DNA from: Octopus sinensis | Taxonomy: Eukaryota | Direction: 5' to 3' | Assembly (NCBI RefSeq): GCF_006345805.1 | Contig: NC_043026.1 | Coordinates: 2,480,001 to 2,544,000 of the forward strand | DNA length: 64,000 bases | Shown: positions 1,280-46,709 of the stretch, piece after piece | How the letters are laid out: every line of letters starts with the position of its first letter | Position numbering within the stretch: the first letter of the stretch is position 1 | The notes under the pieces: model-generated | What the model was told of the DNA's origin: nothing | What the model saw: the letters and a program-made list of their open reading frames with translations, nothing else | The model's database searches: none | Position numbers and translations under genes: made by a program

Positions 1280-1590
1280 TGGTGAATGAGGAATTCCATG
1301 CTTGTAACAGAAAATGTGTCAGATGAGAACGTTGACTAAATACCTCTTTCCTGGAGTTTAAAAAGGCTCCAGGTTGAGTAAGTTTTTTGTAGGATTCTTG
1401 CTCTCTCTCTGCCAAGCAAAGCTGACATCATTTGCTCCCATTTATATATGTCCCCGGTTCAAGGAACTTCCATTTTATTATGTGTAGGGTGCCCTCTTCT
1501 AAGCCCCATATGTGGCTGGCCAGGGGCATGATGTTGCACCTGTATTACTGCTCTGATGTTTTATAGTGCTTCTTTTATGGATATATGAAC
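1280..1590 (-). mobile_element. Degraded Penelope-like GIY-YIG C-terminal fragment
   Basis: PLASHIWGL..IKWKFL....YINGSK*CQLCLAERE...FLNSRKEVFSQRSHLTHFLLQAW aligns by eye with the end of the 15555 ORF (LSNHIWSL..IQWKIL..YTNGSGRCGLC.MER..LNTRTELFGSCPHVTKFLL). Confidence 0.75.
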
Positions 1591-15061: not shown

Positions 15062-15105
<44 letters not shown>

Positions 15106-15132
15106 ATAATATGTTACATTACTCGGTAGTCA

Positions 15133-15195
15133 AGATAAAACTTTGAGTTTCAGATGCCGAAGTGGAAATCCACAACACCATCTCTTCGGTTATCT
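15133..15195 (-). ncRNA. Hammerhead-like motif in the inverted 5' pLTR, CCGAAGA core
   Basis: Reverse-complement copy of 17292-17354. Confidence 0.7.
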
Positions 15196-17291
15196 GGCTA
15201 TTTGAAAACGCTATGAAAAAATACCGTTAAATAATTAAATAATTAATCCCAGGATTAAAGGCTTGGAAGATTTCGAAGCGGACCTGCTGAAAATTATGAG
15301 CAAAATAAAATTTCGTAAGTCTTTTAACGATTTCCAACATAAATTGAAAAAAGATATTAAACATAGAAAAAGCTCCAAGAAAAAAGCACTTTTTTGGATA
15401 AAACCAAGAACTTATACCAGGTAGATAACAGCAAATACACACAACTCTTACACAACAGCATCATTAATCATTAATAATTATACTAAGGCTAGGGCACAGA
15501 TATATAACGAAATTAATAATGAAGCTAGCGTCATCGCCGCTAAACTTAAATTAGATGAAAAAAATAGAAGCCCTCCCCCAAAAAGAGGCCTTTATTACTA
15601 TTAAAGATCACAAAGAAAACTTCCTTTCCAACCCTAAATGTAGGCTTATCAACCCAGCCAAGTCAGAACTAGGGATTATTAGCAAAGAAATTTTAGATAA
15701 AATAAATGCGAAAATTAAGAACGCTACTAGGCTAGTACAATGGTCCAATAGTATAGAAGTCGTAGACTGGTTTAAAGCTATTAAGAATAAGAAAAAAGCG
15801 AGGTTTACACAATTCGATATTGTTGATTTTTATGCCTCTATCTCTAAAGAACTGCTAGATAAAGCCCTCATCTTCGCTAGCGACTTCATAGAAATTAGTA
15901 CCAATGATAAGGACATAATCTACCATGCTATAAAGATATTACTTTTCAGTAAGAACGCAAAGTGGGTAAAAAACACCGACACAGAGGGCGCTTTCGATGT
16001 GAGCATGGGTTCATATGATGGGGCAGGCATCTGTGATCTAATTGGACTTTTTCTCCTAGATACCTTAGGTAAGACATTCCCTAACGTACATTTCGCCATC
16101 TACAAAGATGATGCCCTCGGACTTAGTATAACTATAGATACTAACCTGACAGTTGTCAATTTCTTAGACGTTTCCTTAGATCTTAATAAGAATATTTATA
16201 AGCCTTATAGGAAGCCCAATGATAGACTTAGTTATATTAATGTAGGTTCATGCCATCCCCCTATAGTATTCAAAAATTTAGTTAAAAATATTAGTAAGAG
16301 GATTTCTAGCCTCTCCTCTGATGAGGACATCTTCAATAGCATTGCCCAAGTTTATTATAAGGCTTTAAAAGATAGAGGTCTTAGCGAAAAAATAAAATAT
16401 ACACCTATCACCAGCCCAACAATAAGGAAAAGGAATAATAGAAATAGGAAGGTCATCTGGTTTACGCCCCCTTACTCACCCGAGGTGGCCTTCAATATAG
16501 GTAAATATTTCCTAGCACTGATAGATAGACATTTTCCAGTTAACCATGCTTATAGGAAACTCTTCAATAGACACAATTTAAAAACCAATTTTAAAAACAT
16601 AATCAAACATAACATACAAAAAACACAACAAGAAAACAGCTGTTCATGCAGGAATAAAGAATTGTGCCTGCTAAATGGAGCTTGCATGTCCAAGACCATC
16701 ATATATGAAGCTACCGTAAACTCTATAATGACTAAAGACACCGTTTCGACGAAGAAATACGTGGGCCTTACAGAGGGTAATTTCAAGGCCAGGTTCAATA
16801 ACCACACTTTGAGCTTTAGGCACTGGAACAAAAGAAAAGCGACACAATTATCTAATCATATTTGGTCTTTAAGAGATAAAGGTGTCGATTATAACATACA
16901 ATGGAAGATTTTGGCCAGATGTAAGCCCTATACTAACGGCAGCGGAAGGTGCGGTCTATGCGACATGGAGAGATGGCTTATCTGGAAAAGCAGCTTAGAC
17001 CCTACTACATGTCTAAATACAAGGACAGAGCTTTTCGGATCATGCCCACATGTGACTAAATTTCTGTTACGTTTTTGGTCCCCTAAAGAAAACAGATAGA
17101 ACATGCTTTTTATGTTATGTCCCAAGAAGAATTTATATATTTTTATATATTTTTATATATTTTTTATGTATTTTTATATAATTTTTATGACGAAAAATGC
17201 GAGCAATGTATAAGTACGCAGGCAAGCAGAGTTATAACAGAGTAATTTCCCTTTATTTAACGGTATTTTTTCATAGCGTTTTCAAATAGCC

Positions 17292-17354
17292 AGATAACCG
17301 AAGAGATGGTGTTGTGGATTTCCACTTCGGCATCTGAAACTCAGAGTTTTATCT
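17292..17354 (+). ncRNA. Type I hammerhead-like motif in the PLE 3' pLTR, CCGAAGA core
   Basis: agauaa CCGAAGA gaug...cauc u GAAAC ucaga GUU uuaucu. Stem I agauaa/uuaucu. Confidence 0.72.
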
Positions 17355-17681
17355 TGACTACCGAGTAATGTAACATATTATTGTATAGATAAATTTCCTC
17401 TATTTACATAATATTGAGGTCTCTTTCTTTCTTTTGTTATCTTACCGTTTTACCAATATATATATATATATGTATATATATATATGTAATATACATATGC
17501 ACATATACACACATACATTATTACATCTATACATGCATACACACACACAAACACACATATACAAACACATACACATATATATGCATGTATATATATATAT
17601 AATATATATATATATATATAATATATATATATATATAATATACATACATATACACACACATATCTATGTATGTATATACAT

Positions 17682-19375: not shown

Positions 19376-19589
19376 GGACACAGAAAAAACAAGGAGAGAA
19401 AAAAATGTGTGTAGTGGCTAACAATCTATACATATATATATGTGTGTGTGTCTGTGTGTGTGTGTGTAAGTGTGTGTAAGTGTTTTATCTTATATTTAAT
19501 CTTTCTATAATATTCAATTTTTCTATAATATATAATTTAATTTTTCATTATTGAATTGATAAAAGGTGTTTTTTTTAAATTTATATATA

Positions 19590-19690
19590 TATTATATTTT
19601 GTGGAATTTGATTTAGTATTTCTAAATTGAATTTTTCCCTGTAAGTTTGGAATAATATTCCCTCATATTAATATTATTATTATTATATAC

Positions 19691-19733
<43 letters not shown>

Positions 19734-19831
19734 CATACTGCGATATGAACATTTAACGTGGTTTTATAGTCAGAATTTCGACTGCTATTTCGGCATGTTG
19801 GTGTCTTTTAGACACCCTCATTTTTAATTGT

Positions 19832-19866
<35 letters not shown>

Positions 19867-21360
19867 GATTACACATGTACATATACATACATGGTATTCT
19901 ATATAAGGCTGACAAGGTGATGTAGGTTGTTTAACCCTCAGCAAAGAAGTAATGGGTTACTGATAAACAATGATTAAATCTGAAATCAGTGCTGATATGA
20001 CTCCATCTCCCTTGTCGGCCATTAGTAAAGTGCTCTCACGTGGCTAAGAGATGTTTTCACTCTTATTTCTAGCAATGCTGGTGCTTACTAGCACCCTACA
20101 TCACTTTAATAACAACTATACTTGTATGTGTGTGTGTATATATATATATACTCTTTTTATTCTTTTACTTGTTTCATCCACTTAACTGTGGCTATGCTGG
20201 AGCACCGCCTTTAGTCAAGCAAATCGACTCCAGGACTTATTCTTTGTAAGCCTAGTACTTATTCTATCAGTCTCTTTTGCCAAACTACTAAGTTACAGGG
20301 ACGTAAACACACCAACACACCAGCATCAGTTGTCAAGCGATGTGAGGGGGACAAACACAGACATACAAACATATACACACACATTAAATATATATATATA
20401 TACATATATATACGATGGGCTTCTTTCAGTTTCCATCTACCAAATCCACTCACAATGCTTTGGTAGGCCTGAGGCTATTGTAGAAGACACTTGCCCAAGT
20501 TGCCACGCAGTGGGACTGAACCTGGAACCATGTGGTTGGTAAGCAAACTACTTATCACACAGCCGCTCCTACGCCTATATATATATATATATATATATAT
20601 ATACCAGCGATGTGTAGCAACATCTGATAGCCTGGTCAGTCACGGTGTTATATTATATATATATTATATTAAAATTATATTAAAATTATATTAAAATTTA
20701 TATATATATATATATTATATTTTGTGGAATTTGATTTAGTATTTCTAAATTGAATTTTTCCCTGTAAGTTTGGAATAATATTCCCTCATATTAATATTAT
20801 TATTATTATATACATATATATATATACATATATATATATATATGATTACACATGTACATATACATACATGGTATTCTATATAGGCTGACAAGGTGATGTA
20901 GGTTGTTTAACCTCAGCAAAGAAGTAATGGGTTACTGATGAAGAATGATTAAATCTGAAATCAGTGCTGATATGACTCCATCTCCCTTGTCGGCCATTAG
21001 TAAAGTGCTCTCACGTGGCTAAGAGATGTTTTCACTCTTATTTCTAGCAATGCTGGTGCTTACTAGCACCCTACATCACTTTAATAACAACTATACTTGT
21101 ATGTGTGTGTGTATATATATATAATCTTTTTATTCTTTTACTTGTTTCATCCACTTAACTGTGGCCATGCTGGAGCACCGCCTTTAGTCAAGCAAATCGA
21201 CTCCAGGACTTATTCTTTGTACACCTAGTACTTATTTTATCAGTCTCTTTTGCCAAACTGCTAAGTTACAGGGACGTAAACACACCAACACACCAGTATC
21301 AGTTGTCAAGCGATGTAGTGGGGACAAACACAGACACACAAACATATACACACACATTAA

Positions 21361-21391
<31 letters not shown>

Positions 21392-21556
21392 TATACGATG
21401 GGCTTCTTTCAGTTTCCATCTACCAAATCCACTCACAATGCTTTGGTAGGCCTGAGGCTATTGTAGAAGACACTTGCCCAAGTTGCCACGCAGTGGGACT
21501 GAACCCGGAACCATGTGGTTGGTAAGCAAGCTACTTATCACACAGCCACTCCTACG

Positions 21557-21597
<41 letters not shown>

Positions 21598-21682
21598 GTA
21601 TGTATATATATATAATATATATATATTATATATATATACCAGCGATGTGTAGCAACATCTGATAGCCTGGTCAGTCACGGTG

Positions 21683-21690
<8 letters not shown>
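19590..21690. repeat. Tandem duplication of about 1 kb (19590-20660 and 20713-21690); each unit holds a structured element and a SINE
   Basis: The same blocks occur in the same order with scattered substitutions. Confidence 0.9.
20929..20978 (+). ncRNA. Type I hammerhead ribozyme motif, canonical core (degenerate duplicate at 19954-20003)
   Basis: ggguua CUGAUGA aga...ucu GAAA ucag ug cuga UA ugacuc. 6-bp stem I with G-U pairs and an extended stem III. Confidence 0.78.
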
Positions 21691-21727
<37 letters not shown>

Positions 21728-21729
21728 CA

Positions 21730-22293
21730 ATAAAAAATCTCTGAACGAGATGTAAACAGTAACTGCACGACAGTGTGAGGTATACTAGCCATCTCAATAT
21801 GGCTAACCACTAAGGGTCGGTGTTACTGTAGCTTTTAGCCCCAGGAGAACATCGTCTCCAGCTGGCTTTAGGCACACTTTCTGTGCCCTTATGGTATTTG
21901 CAAAGGGAACTCATCCCTCTCTCGTAAACCTAAGTGATACACAAGGACTGCAGTTTCTAGGTATTTGCCTGTCTTCGGCATACGGCAATCACCGGTTTTC
22001 GATGAAGGGAGTCCATTTGCAAATCCTTATATATCGTTTTTCCAGTAACTTTTCGTCACTGATTTCAAAAACCGGTGATTGCCGTACGTTGACAAGAGGC
22101 AAATACCCAGAAACTGCAGTCCATGCGTATCACTTAGGTTGACGAGGGAAGGATGACCTCCCTTTGCAAATACCATAAGGGCACAGAAAGTGTGCCAAAA
22201 GCCAGCCAGAGACGATGATCTCCTGGGGCTAAAAGCTACAGTAACACCCACCCTTAGTGGTTAGCCATATTGAGATGGCAAGTATACCTTACA
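21730..22293. mobile_element. Inverted pair of PLE-type pseudo-LTRs carrying hammerheads (non-coding)
   Basis: Arms 21774-21999 and 22067-22293 are diverged reverse complements, with a hammerhead motif in each arm and (TA)n flanks. Confidence 0.8.
21934..21992 (-). ncRNA. Type I hammerhead-like motif, CCGAAGA core (decayed mirror copy at 22075-22133, +)
   Basis: gugau..cguaug CCGAAGA c agg caaaua ccu a GAAAC ugca GUC cuugugu aucac. Palindromic ACUGCAGU stem III. Confidence 0.72.
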
Positions 22294-23634: not shown

Positions 23635-23805
23635 CAAAAATGAGCAACAAGAATGGCTCCGGTAGTTTGGTACAATTGTTTCACACTACAACATTTTATT
23701 AAAAGTTGTAATAAATCTGCTGTAATACTTACAACTTTTAATAAAATGTTGTAGTGTGAAACAATTGTACCAAACTACCGGATTCATTCTTGTTGCTCAT
23801 TTTTG
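23635..23805. repeat. Short fold-back with 77-bp arms containing the 3' half of a hammerhead (GAAAC AAUU GUA)
   Basis: 23635-23711 versus 23729-23805, 17-nt spacer, next to (TA)n. Confidence 0.8.
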
Positions 23806-23983: not shown

Positions 23984-24099
23984 TTGAGTACAGAAATTCG
24001 GGGTGAGTACTTGATAAATGTAAGCACCTGTATATACCGTTAGGTGGTGTAGGTGGTGGAGTAAATTGATCAAAATAAAAACATGATGCCAAGGATTCA

Positions 24100-24175
24100 G
24101 CGGTACATATGTTTCGGGCCTTATTAGACAGATTTATAACAATGCATAAGTATGTCTGTGGCCTTCTTCAGCCGC
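24100..24175 (-). ncRNA. Type I hammerhead ribozyme motif (mirror copy, same sense as the PTER pre-mRNA)
   Basis: Reverse complement of 24578-24655 with the core intact. Confidence 0.85.
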
Positions 24176-24577
24176 GCACAACAACTTCTTCCACAAGGAC
24201 ATGTGTTACATCAAGAATTCTTGGTTGGGGATGCAAATCCTCTCATTCGCGTACGACATAATGCGGCAACAGCATAGAAGTGAAGCGTCCATCTCGTTCT
24301 TCTCTCAATGTAGAATGAGGAAATTTGGATGTTGAAGTAATGTAAATAAATTAATAAATAAATTTATTTACATTAATTTATTAATTTATTTACATAAATT
24401 AATTTATTTACATTACTTCAACATCCAAATTTCCTCATTCTACATTGAGAGAAGAACGAGATGGACGCTTCACTTCTATGCTGTTGCCGCATTATGTCGT
24501 ACGCGAATGAGAGGATTTGCATCCCCAACCAAGAATTCTTGATGTAACACATGTCCTTGTGGAAGAAGTTGTTGTGC

Positions 24578-24655
24578 GCGGCTGAAGAAGGCCACAGACA
24601 TACATTATGCATTGTTATAAATCTGTCTAATAAAGGCCCGAAACATATGTACCGC
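24578..24655 (+). ncRNA. Type I hammerhead ribozyme motif, canonical core
   Basis: gcgg CUGAAGA a-ggcc-acaga...ucugu..ggcc-c GAAAC auau GUA ccgc. Stem I gcgg/ccgc, palindromic minimal stem III, predicted cleavage after 24651. Confidence 0.85.
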
Positions 24656-24691
24656 TGAATCCTTGGCATCATGTTTTTATTTTGATCAATT

Positions 24692-24724
<33 letters not shown>

Positions 24725-25146
24725 GAGTGTATTTTACCTTGTTAACAATTAACACGGATAAATAAATGAATAGTTACCAGGGCAGCAAAAATCTCACATA
24801 TGACAAAGGCAAGAAATTCTGTCTTCTCTGCAATTCTGAGCTATTTTTCATTATTTTTTCTAAAAATACTCTAGTAAACACGGTTATAGAACGAGCATAC
24901 AGATGTAAGCATTGGCAGAAACATACTTTTAGTGCATATAAGTAGTCTCTATCATTATATATAGTTTAGACTTTAATTTCCTTTATATTTAACATTCACT
25001 ATTAATATCCCTACTCTTTCTGTTAGCTACTTATGACGTTATATCATATAACGTTTTTTTAAACAATATTAATAGCGTTCTGTCTATCGCTATACGAATC
25101 CATCATTTTTTGCTAAAATGTCTTATTGATGAGTTTCGTTTTTTTC

Positions 25147-25991: not shown

Positions 25992-27741
25992 CTAGTTTAA
26001 CATTAAGATAGAGATATTGTCATCAACATCATCATCATCATCATCATGAACAGCTGCAGGATGACTAGCCACAGTTATCCTCACCATAATCATCATCCTT
26101 TTGACAAGCCCCTTAATCTCTTGGGGGTTGTTGGGGGCACTGCAGCCATGCAGCATATATCTAGGGTGAGAAAGCCTGACAGAAACCCTTCCTCCCCAGG
26201 CTAAACTCATTTCTACGGCCGAGTGGACTGGAGCAACATGAAGTGCTTTGCTCCAGAACACAATGGCTCACCCAGCCCAGGGATTGAAACCACAATCTTA
26301 CAGCTGTGAGTCCAACACCCTAACCACTAAGCAACGTGCCTCCACTAGTGGTGGTCATTTCTATAGCTGAGTAGACTGGAGCAACAAAACACAAGACATT
26401 TCTCGGTCCAGGAATCGAAATGACAATCTTGCCCTAACCACTAAGCCATTACTACCATTGTTATTGTGACTAAGGAAGCAATCTGGCAGGATTGTTGGTC
26501 AGCTAGAAGAAAAGCTCAGCAGTACTTCATTCCTTTTTACATTCTGAGTTCAAATTCTGCCAAGGTTGACTTTGTTTTTATCCTTTTGGGGTGGGGGTGG
26601 GAAATATTGCAAACCGATGTTCATATTAATTTTATTTATATATACACACATATAGTTATGTTTTTGAAGTCTGTGTTGCGGTGTGTTGACAGGCTTGCAG
26701 TTAAAATTCTCATGTTTTTAATCAAAACTTGTTAGTTACTATGGTGACAACACTAGCTATCTATCTCATTTTTACACAAACAAACAAACACACACTCTTT
26801 CTCTCCCAACAACAACTTTTTCTCCTCCCCTTCTTCCCACCTTGTAAATATACATTGCAACAGGGGTTTTGTCCTCTCTTTTCTCCCCCTTCTTTTCCCT
26901 CCTACATAGATGTGACAAATAGAGATCAACTTCTCTTTTATAATGTAAGATTATATACTGACTCTTCTCAATGGACTCATAACTCATTGCTCTTCAATGA
27001 GGGGATACAGCCCCTGTCACAGCATATATTTACATGGAGGGAAGAAGGGGAGAAAGAAAGGTTAAGTTGCTGTTGAGAGAAATACAGTGAGAGAGAGAGA
27101 GAGAGAGAGGTAGTATTGCAACCATGGTAACTAACAAGTTGAATCTGTATCTTATGAAACAGACAAGAAACTGATATTTTCAAACGCAGTATTGCCATTG
27201 AAACAGCAGAAATAATGGGAAATATTACCCTTACATGGTGGAAAAAGTTGTCAACAAACAGCCATGGGAGTTGAACCCACATCCCCTAAGACACTGGCTT
27301 TACCATTAAGCTAAACTACCTGCTGACAACATTTCCACCGATTTTAAACGCTAAATAGATAGCTTATAGAAATGTAACAACCACATGTGTATATAAACTA
27401 ACATTTGTTTTTTTTTAGAAGCGTTGAATGTGTATTGTACAATACAGACAAGAAAGTGATATTCGTGAATGGAGTATCACCATTAAAACACCCGAAAAGG
27501 CGGAATCCTATGGTTGTTTGTTGATAACTTTTTCTGCCTTGTAAGAGAAATAATATCCAATTTTTCTGCTGTTTTAACAACAAAACTGTGTATGAAATGA
27601 AGTGTTTTGCTCAAGAACACACACCACCCAGTTCAAGAATTGAATCCACGATCATCAAATTTCAAGTGCAACACCCTAGCCATTAGGCCACATGCCTTCA
27701 TACTGAATCCAGTAAGGGAAATTAAAAGAAACTATACTTAC

Positions 27742-41569: not shown

Positions 41570-41830
41570 AATCTGCGTAATTTAATGTTACCAACGATGT
41601 TCCACAGTTCTTCTTCGAAATACGCCAGGCGTGGATTGTTGGGTAGGTTTTTGCGAGATTTAAATCCAAGCCTTGGGTTCCCCTTTTATTGCCGACTTAC
41701 TCATCACTATCATCAACTTTATCGAAATGATAGGTCCTATATCTTATACGTTGTATATAGTAATGATTTTTTTTTTCAGGGAGATTAACTCAGCCGACGA
41801 TGTTCTTCGGAACACATCCAAGTAAAGTTT
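41570..41830 (-). mobile_element. Degraded N-terminal fragment of a Penelope-like ORF
   Basis: LGFKSRKNLPNNPRLAYFEEELWNIVGNIKLR resembles the frameshifted N-terminus at about 15245-15320 (PRIKGLEDFEADLLKIMSKIKFR). Confidence 0.5.
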
Positions 41831-44513: not shown

Positions 44514-45061
44514 ATGAGTCATGAAGATGAATTAGGGAAGGACGAAACTATGGTGCAGGTGATAGATGAATTAAAAAGGAGGAAAAGCAGATATCACAGG
44601 AGTTGAAGGAACTGAAGGAACTGGAAAAACAGATGAATAAAGATCTAAAGGCAGGTATGAGCAAGTTAGAAGAGTTGGAAATACCCGAGCTAAAGGAACT
44701 GGAAACTCTGGAGCTGAAAGAACCTGAAGATCTGGCGATAGCTGAATTGGATGATCTAGAAGAACTGGAAGAACTGGAAGAAATGGAGATACCTGAGCTG
44801 AAGGAACTGAAGGAAGATTTAGAGGCAAGTGAGATGAAGGAACTAGATCTCGAAATACCGGAGCTAAAGGAGCTGGAAGATCTGGAGATAAATGAGTTGA
44901 AAGATCTGGATGATCTGGAGATAAATGAGTTGAAAGACCTGGATGATCTGGAGATACCTGAGCTGAAAGAACTGGAAGATTTGAAGATAATGGATGACAC
45001 CGAACTGAATAAAGAGATAGAAGACTTGGAGTGTTTGAAGAATTGGCGGCTCCACTGTTGA
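44514..45061 (+). CDS. Candidate acidic Leu/Glu-rich repeat protein (LEIPELKELED-like 11-aa units); one-base frameshift in an A5 run near the start
   Basis: Open frame 44576-45061 with repeats that vary largely at synonymous positions. The ATG at 44514 follows a cttttcgcag acceptor-like site and joins the repeat frame if one A is added at 44573-44577 (182 aa). Confidence 0.5.
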
Positions 45062-45357
45062 AAAAGAAATGTCAAATCTGTTTAAGTTTGCAATGGCAGT
45101 GTTAAAGTAATATCTTTGGTTTCATCCAAAGATTGGTTTCGTCAGAAAATATAATTCGGAATGTGAAAGTATATTCATTGTTCAAGATGTATTTCAGTCG
45201 ATATAAAAGTTATAAAGATTAGATTTGCGCATAGCTGTTTGCTTATCATTTGCTATCATAACATATTATCTTTTTAACACACGTCATATGAATGTTTCTC
45301 ACATGTATTTATAGACATTAGCTTAAATAATTTTGCAATTATTTGATTTCACTCCAA

Positions 45358-46314: not shown

Positions 46315-46709
46315 GATCTTCCAATGGATGTTATCGTTGACACCTTACTGGATAATTTGGTTGTTTTTCTTTTTTCCCAGTGTCTGAAACTGAAGGTGTG
46401 ATTGTTGAACCTGGCTTTGAAATTCCCCTCTGTGAGACCCACATATTTATTTGATGAAACAATGTCCTTAGTGGTTGTAGAGACTACAGTGGCTTCATAA
46501 ATGATGGTCTCGGACATGCAGGCTCCATTTTCGCGGGCACAAATTTTTATCCCTGCATGAACAGCTGGTGGTCATTGTTGTTTTTATGTGTTGTGTGCAA
46601 TTATATTTTTAAAATTAGTAATTGAGCTAAAACTAATTTTTAAGTTATGCCTATTAAAGAGCTTTCTGTAATTATGATTGATTGGAAAATGCCTATCTAT
46701 AAGTGATAA
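46315..46709 (-). mobile_element. Penelope-like fragment related to the 15555 element
   Basis: LSLIDRHFPINHNYRKLFNRHNLK and MSETIIYEATV..KYVGLTEGNFKARFNNHTFSFRHW are nearly identical to segments of ORF 15555-17099. Confidence 0.9.

Follow-up and report, generated by a model that had tools for sequence, protein, structure and literature searches.

A stretch of 64,000 nt from Octopus sinensis (the window) carries on its forward strand a short, non-coding repeat unit in which a hammerhead ribozyme motif is enclosed by two long-range complementarities, P1 and P2, that cross each other (Table 1). On the best reading, the unit is a solo, decayed member of a hammerhead repeat that derives from a Penelope element, with P1 as a real clamp on stem I and P2 as a possible pseudoknot limited to a subfamily; we put this forward tentatively, at a little under an even chance. 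The unit belongs to a multi-copy repeat family. The repeat probably arose from a terminal repeat of a Penelope-like retroelement (PLE). P2 is likely a secondary lock confined to a subfamily and not something that the whole family requires.

The repeat unit and its setting

The window is AT-rich animal DNA with many TA microsatellites and short interspersed repeats. The unit itself is about 215 nt long, has stops in all three forward frames and, with a G+C content of 40%, is both non-coding and below the 45% G+C used to recognize retrozymes. TA-rich microsatellites lie on both sides of it (the arrays include 20807-20843), and the unit thus shares the insertion into (TA)n by which pseudo-LTR hammerheads of PLEs are recognized, although this carries little weight here because TA arrays are frequent across the whole window. 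The hairpin that was originally predicted to precede the last strand, ugcuggu/acuagca, is present (hairpin 2), while hairpin 1 overlaps the segment at about 21026-21057 that is common to most contigs of the family and forms their depth peak.

Table 1. Features of the hammerhead repeat unit and related places in the window (positions counted from the first base of the window)
Feature	Position	Strand	Basis or remark
Hammerhead repeat unit, solo decayed copy, non-coding	20883..21100	+	Zero contig depth upstream; no ORF
P1 5' strand (A)	20883..20893	+	Complementarity; mean pair probability 0.99 in nested ensemble
P2 5' strand (B)	20890..20902	+	Runs on from A without a gap; overlap up to 4 nt
Variable linker	20903..20926	+	8 variable positions in 20914-20925; 1-nt insertions at 20910-20915
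Type I hammerhead, Penelope-type form	20927..20981	+	Sequence and folding
P1 3' strand (C)	20985..20995	+	Complementarity; family letter A at 20992 strengthens pair
Hairpin 1	21020..21040	+	Pairs regained with the majority letters at 21026 and 21033
Hairpin 2, ugcuggu/acuagca	21051..21068	+	21051-57/21062-68, 7 bp, one G-U
P2 3' strand (D)	21070..21082	+	Complementarity; centre differs in sister subfamilies
Unit duplicate	19907..20119	+	Part of a tandem duplication of ~1 kb (975 nt), about 19574-20669 / 20697-21705
Crossing pair	~21.9-22.1 kb	-	Inverted repeat
Crossing pair	~26.9-27.1 kb	-	Purine/pyrimidine tract

Several other repeats are found in the neighborhood. A SINE-like repeat with 20 further matches within the window lies immediately 3' of the unit, at 21112-21570, and a weak tRNA-like match at 27256-27320 on the reverse strand (29.7 bits) is likely a SINE head. 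Long inverted repeats at 21774-22293 (229 bp at 90%), 23635-23805 (77 bp at 97%) and 24062-24693 (206 bp at 100%) are probably MITE-like or foldback elements.

The hammerhead ribozyme

The original prediction placed a canonical hammerhead at 20929-20978, inside the enclosing helices. A hammerhead does lie there, but its span is somewhat wider (about 20927-20981), its stem II contains an A-A mismatch, and the Rfam hammerhead models gave no match to the unit, either at the gathering score or at E ≤ 10. The weak miRNA matches returned by Rfam were rejected, since they are the TA repeats. Stem I (20927-34/20973-81, with one bulge) is joined to the core at 20935-41, followed by an extra A at 20942, the pair G20943-C20955, stem II, GAAA at 20957-60, the palindromic stem and loop III at 20960-71 and U20971-A20972, with the cut predicted to fall after A20972. 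The unit has the CUGANGA, GAAA and UH elements of the type I core, whereas its duplicate reads CUGAUAA in place of CUGANGA, and the unit folds into three stems with its ends in stem I, the stem II mismatch being repaired by the majority letter of the family. A U precedes the GAA and the order of the core elements is that of an ordinary type I hammerhead, on which ground a non-circularly permuted form such as that described in PMC10085705 was rejected.

Penelope-type hammerheads have been described as having an extra nucleotide after A9, a G10.1-C11.1 pair and a palindromic helix III (PMC4209133), and hammerheads of the same form are listed for the Hydra clade in the supplement of PMC8557442. 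All three features are found in the unit, as A20942, G20943-C20955 and the palindrome at 20960-71.

This palindrome forms a self-duplex of -15.0 kcal/mol, or -19.5 kcal/mol with the majority letter (all energies are nearest-neighbor estimates that include no pseudoknot or tertiary terms). The first five bases of the core (20935-20939) recur in the 3' strand of stem III (20967-20971). The 5' strand of stem III (20960-20964) can pair with either copy, which suggests that an off state is built into the monomer. Indeed, in the lowest-energy monomer the core bases 20935-39 are paired to 20960-64, and the active fold lies 5.6-6.8 kcal/mol higher. When two molecules with the majority letters are folded together, the result is exactly a double hammerhead, at -38.7 compared with -30.4 for two monomers. 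The dimer of the window copy is also favored (-27.0 vs. -20.6 for the monomers) but does not adopt the active shape, so the window copy is probably a poor cutter. In these models, a single hammerhead molecule is expected to be inactive and the dimer active.

The crossing helices

Two adjacent 5' segments had been predicted to pair with crossing 3' partners, and the pairing is as described. P1 connects 20883-20893 to 20985-20995 by 11 bp with a sole G-U (20886/20992), and P2 connects 20893-20902 to 21070-21079 by ten Watson-Crick pairs out of ten; judged by sequence pairing, the two helices cross and enclose the hammerhead. The crossing persists under any circular permutation of the unit. P2 can be extended to 13 bp with one G-U (20890-20902/21070-21082), in which case it competes with P1 for 20890-20893. 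Since G20893 is used by both helices, at most 10 + 10 bp can form simultaneously.

P1 (-19.1 kcal/mol) and extended P2 (-17.8) are by a wide margin the two strongest uninterrupted helices of the unit, the next being -8.5. Dinucleotide shuffling of the 213-nt unit, repeated 1,500 times, never gave a crossing pair of equal strength, compared by its weaker helix. By pairing and by shuffles, the crossing complementarity expected of a functional pseudoknot is thus above chance. In the window as a whole, with alternating repeats masked, the two copies of the unit rank at the top of the forward strand among 151 crossing pairs, while crossing pairs of equal or greater strength occur at two other places on the reverse strand (Table 1). 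The pattern is rare, but not unique, in the window.

P2 is less striking once P1 and the leader are taken as given. With the leader fixed and the 3' part shuffled, a helix of the strength of P2 arose in 100 of 20,000 cases (p ~0.005), and a perfect 10-mer or longer in 512 of 100,000. P1 could be real while P2 has no function in RNA and is either a chance match or an inverted copy, made by template switching and inherited by the subfamily. For a feature chosen out of a large scan, a p value of this size is modest, and P2 has a pair probability of 0.00-0.09 in the nested ensembles. The overlap of A and B, AAG(G), is such as a microhomology junction would leave. PLE insertions typically carry inverted copies of their 5' part, as described in PMC8557442, and one such copy is found in the window at 15093-15234. 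On the other hand, B begins exactly at the end of A; 69 of the 100 helices of P2 strength among the shuffles, or 69 of 20,000 overall, began no more than 2 nt from P1. On balance, a P2 devoid of RNA function is unlikely, although it deserves to be taken seriously, and it is considered again below with the evidence from the family.

The duplicate copy

The duplicate of the unit is 98.4% identical to it over 253 nt and is part of a tandem duplication that is bounded by TA repeats and also includes a SINE-like repeat with matches in other parts of the window. No further copies of the unit are present within the 64 kb. The core of the duplicate reads CUGAUAA, the result of a G8-to-A change at 19965, and its hammerhead is likely inactive, by analogy with a Schistosoma candidate with a CUGANAA core that has been reported as likely inactive (PMC8490949). 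Both helices were predicted to persist in this copy, and they do, with P1 starting at 19907 and P2 ending at 20104. However, the duplicate is no independent evidence for conservation, because it is a 98% identical local tandem duplication with a dead core, and it was rejected as such. The persistence of the helices in it points to no more than recent common descent.

The repeat family

Parts of the stretch were matched in 12 of the 24 sequencing runs listed, under four organism labels, and contigs of the family were found in all four runs that were aligned (11, 1343, 919 and 663 contigs). In all four, the contig cover is zero at 20866-20881 and begins at 20882. No contig spanning the whole unit was found among the pieces listed for the four runs. 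The 5' leader is supported by few contigs (four in run X3 and five in run X6 at 20915-20920), the hammerhead by tens and the segment 21026-21057 by far the most. The summed contig depth of this ~30-nt segment is about 20 times that of the hammerhead in three runs. Judged by depth, this segment appears to be what members of a larger superfamily share most widely, and it is a candidate for a signal recognized by the reverse transcriptase (RT).

The letters of the family were taken as one per position at 31 positions, with their shares in X3, from the 40 rows listed in unlinked variant tables (nine minor rows were dropped). Downstream of 20925, seven letters among the rows listed make up more than 75% of the X3 depth. 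Five of these fall at paired positions, and all five improve the pairing: a G-U in stem I becomes G-C, the stem II mismatch becomes U-A, the G-U in P1 becomes U-A and two changes lie in the hairpin at 21020-21040. The remaining two consist of one that perfects the palindrome at 20960-20971 and one that is unpaired. Because the majority letters improve pairing, the window copy is taken to be a decayed member of a structured family. The P1 change, an A at 20992 in 91% of the X3 depth, is one-sided, and a G at 20985 in 50% of the X3 depth breaks the terminal P1 pair. Several minority letters, taken singly, break hairpins 1 and 2.

For at least four contigs of X3 and at least five of X6, the alignment starts at 20882/3 and takes in the whole of C, although some 110 nt contain 16-18 other letters. 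Since these diverged contigs span both strands of P1, A and C travel together. In hairpin 2, three contigs of run X1 have equal depth sums at 21053 U and 21066 A, from which a linked, compensatory change from C-G to U-A is likely. For P2, no compensatory change is seen among the variant rows listed, the sole visible change being one at 21070 that yields a G-U (9%). In the abundant sister subfamilies, D differs at three central positions (in a loose-end consensus among those listed, with an agreement of 0.56-0.65). Directly after D, these subfamilies have a GTGAC stretch with which a local hairpin of 5 bp could be closed. This divergence of D is what one would expect if P2 had no function in RNA. 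However, the A-B leader is common to several diverged contigs in three runs while the adjoining linker varies, its eight variable positions all being unpaired in the model, and the window copy lacks the local hairpin partner exactly where the long-range partner is present. Both points argue for some role of P2, as in the preferred reading of a P2 limited to a subfamily.

A few other observations concern the contigs. In one X1 contig, the 3' part repeats with a 342-nt period, and the hammerhead is not seen in that contig. Among the runs listed with a match to the stretch, none is recorded as RNA. Another X1 contig, 207 nt long and with a depth of 2.7, spans 20887-21091 without substitutions; X1 is only guessed to be RNA, and the contig is not counted as evidence of expression. 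Five pattern scans for family members in viral, metagenome and prokaryote genome contigs gave no matches.

Clamp, pseudoknot or switch

The helices were originally suggested to hold the cleavage products together. For P1, the computed energies support this idea. In the nested fold, P1 forms a long continuation of stem I by which the hammerhead domain is closed, with a pair probability of 0.99 in the window copy and 0.90 with the majority letters. The predicted binding of the cleavage products is -20.6 kcal/mol in the window copy and -18.3 kcal/mol with the majority letters when P1 is present, compared with -2.1 and -5.5, respectively, for stem I alone. P1 thus takes the binding in the window copy from about -2 to about -20 kcal/mol, and it is kept by the family. 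For P2, whose 3' strand differs in the abundant sister subfamilies, no covariation was seen among the variant rows listed.

A stronger proposal is that P1 and P2 together make up an obligatory, family-wide pseudoknot in which the 20-nt 5' strand splints D to the start of C and forms a platform for a partner RT or ligase. There is no spacer between A and B and, because the 5' strand is continuous, the 3' end of D would abut the start of C in the manner of a splint. The pseudoknot loops, at 82 and 74 nt, are long enough by inspection, and the contig cover indicates that the repeat copy starts at the first base of P1. The stacked helices come to -64.3 kcal/mol vs. -59.9 for the nested fold in the window copy and to -70.2 vs. 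-62.3 with the majority letters, a margin of 4.4-7.9 kcal/mol before the pseudoknot penalty and any coaxial bonus. However, the penalty for forming a pseudoknot is roughly 7-10 kcal/mol, and this would remove the margin, leaving the energies in favor of neither fold. The lack of visible compensatory changes in P2 also speaks against an obligatory pseudoknot, as does the fact that the most widely shared segment is 21026-21057 and not D. Furthermore, among the 15 of 22 joints listed, none returns to the cut site at 20973, and the back-joints span 102, 87, 82 or 45 nt, whereas the splint register predicts 94 nt. We therefore regard this proposal as improbable. Equally doubtful is the related idea that a nicked 20-bp helix keeps the cleaved RNA closed and offers a Penelope-type (telomerase-related) RT a platform for recognition and priming, with the sister subfamilies using the local hairpin instead.

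The helices had also been suggested to switch the ribozyme on and off, and the folding models lend this no support. P1 and P2 have 4 nt in common, and the P1-only and P2-only folds are only 0.6 kcal/mol apart with the majority letters and 3.4 kcal/mol apart in the window copy, as might be expected if they were mutually exclusive folds that exchange via the shared AAGG toehold and thereby switch the state of the ribozyme or the template. However, the overlap is just 1-4 nt, so that exclusion is not forced by the sequence. Moreover, imposing the hammerhead fold costs about the same with P1 as with P2 (-56.7 vs. -55.2), so that an exchange between the helices would not gate cleavage. An exchange of this kind is the least probable of the alternatives, and in the folding models neither helix blocks the ribozyme fold. 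The candidate for on/off control would instead be the pairing of the core with the stem III strand, set against the palindromic dimer.

On the preferred reading, that of a decayed solo copy with a real P1 clamp and a P2 limited to a subfamily, the following course of events may be envisaged. The letters of the family suggest that its members maintained hairpin 1, P1 and both stems I and II, all of which have decayed in the window copy. In a single molecule, the core at 20935-39 would fold onto the 5' strand of stem III at 20960-64, leaving the ribozyme off. Two molecules would then pair through the 12-nt palindrome to form a double hammerhead that cuts after A20972. P1 would hold the nicked RNA together and thereby favor re-ligation, or closure of a circle in tandem transcripts, while P2 could add 10 bp in line with P1 on the continuous 20-nt 5' strand. 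Presumably, the RNA would be copied back into TA repeats by a Penelope-type RT/endonuclease supplied in trans.

Penelope-like elements as possible partners

A broken, Hydra-like Penelope element with 142-nt inverted ends is located at 15093-17394. Its ORF (15555-17099) comprises an RT and an endonuclease, in which the frame is broken near the start and the DD motif is followed by an in-frame gap, and resembles, by eye, Hydra-1_Obim of the PMC8557442 supplement. A Pfam search of the element gave no match, and no relative was found in a collection of viral sequences. The element has its own hammerhead at about 17290-17358, with a CCGAAGA core and a palindromic stem III. As a partner for the unit, this element was rejected, since its hammerhead differs and has no enclosing helices. 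Fragments of the same PLE protein family are found at 1290-1523 (reverse), 46326-46709 (reverse), 24796-24942 (forward) and about 41575-41759 (reverse). Hammerheads of PLE pseudo-LTRs are recognized in part by lying next to, or resembling the end of, an ORF for RT and a GIY-YIG endonuclease; around the unit, the interval from 17.1 to 24.7 kb contains no match to PLE proteins. A second place with hammerhead-like core spacing, a candidate only, is found at 45108-45145 on the reverse strand, adjoining an ORF at 44548-45075.

Nine PLE loci (L001-L009) were also compared, comprising Penelope-type ORFs from prokaryote genome bins, where they are likely contamination from the host animals. The unit has no similarity to any of these nine, and no autonomous partner for it was found within the window or among these loci. 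A pattern search found hammerheads in three of the nine loci, at seven sites. Around these seven sites and two of the window PLE, no crossing pair comparable to that of the unit was found (best -8.3 vs. -14.7), and a crossing pair as a general feature of PLE ends was rejected. Since none of the nine sites is comparable, the enclosing-helix architecture is not general to these PLE ends, which is also in keeping with a P2 that has no function in RNA.

Significance

Hammerheads are common in Penelope-derived repeats, but their role is unsettled, and cleavage was found to be dispensable for insertion in vitro in the work described in PMC11167929. A natural, long clamp around a hammerhead offers a small RNA with which to ask whether such elements act as nicked, re-ligating RNAs or as cutters that release their products. 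Covariation in P2 would indicate that a telomerase-related family of reverse transcriptases has an RNA signal here. Without such covariation, the unit would amount to an ordinary retrozyme-like copy, decayed and distinguished by a long extension of its stem I.

Comparison with known systems

No report of an enclosing pseudoknot around such a hammerhead was found in the parts of the literature available to us. The word pseudoknot does not occur in the main text of PMC7229834, on animal retrozymes, and neither hammerhead nor ribozyme occurs in that of the Octopus repeat paper PMC13282606.

The pelamoviroids PLMVd and CChMVd, as described in PMC11722881, resemble the unit in that their hammerheads are inactive in the stable fold and in having long-range tertiary pairings. 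They are circular RNAs that form both pseudoknots and kissing loops. They differ from the unit in being infectious RNAs of plants and in that their pseudoknots occupy a separate, branched domain and leave stem I unclamped. The PAc Poseidon element of Anolis (PMC11167929) is like the unit in having a weak, assisted hammerhead in its pseudo-LTR and structured RNA downstream, where the RT starts; hammerhead cleavage was unnecessary for its insertion in vitro. However, the start site of its RT is an AC-rich stem loop within the ORF, and the available part of that paper describes no pseudoknot.

The unit also resembles the type I hammerheads of PLE pseudo-LTRs, including those of the Hydra clade (PMC4209133, PMC8557442). 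Like the unit, these have a pyrimidine before GAA, an additional nucleotide following A9 and the G10.1-C11.1 pair. Their helix III is likewise short, palindromic and fit for dimerization, most of them are solo copies, and they are set among TA repeats. The unit differs from them by having no attached ORF, by a helix III that is one pair longer than in the Hydra examples listed there and by its crossing enclosing helices, which were absent from the nine PLE sites.

The non-LTR retrozymes of animals (PMC7229834) likewise have a type I hammerhead, are non-coding with less than 45% G+C and occur as solo copies, and at least one contig of the present family has a tandem period of about 342 nt, within the size range of the mussel retrozymes described there. 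Retrozymes are recognized by tandem units of about 150-400 nt, each of which carries a hammerhead, and by their expression as circular RNA. In contrast, the unit is a solo piece of about 215 nt, known here from its sequence, in a DNA-level duplication with one dead core. Animal retrozymes have been described as derived from the terminal repeats of PLEs, with solo monomers among them (preprint 10.64898/2026.07.22.740005); because of these solo monomers, the unit fits such an origin.
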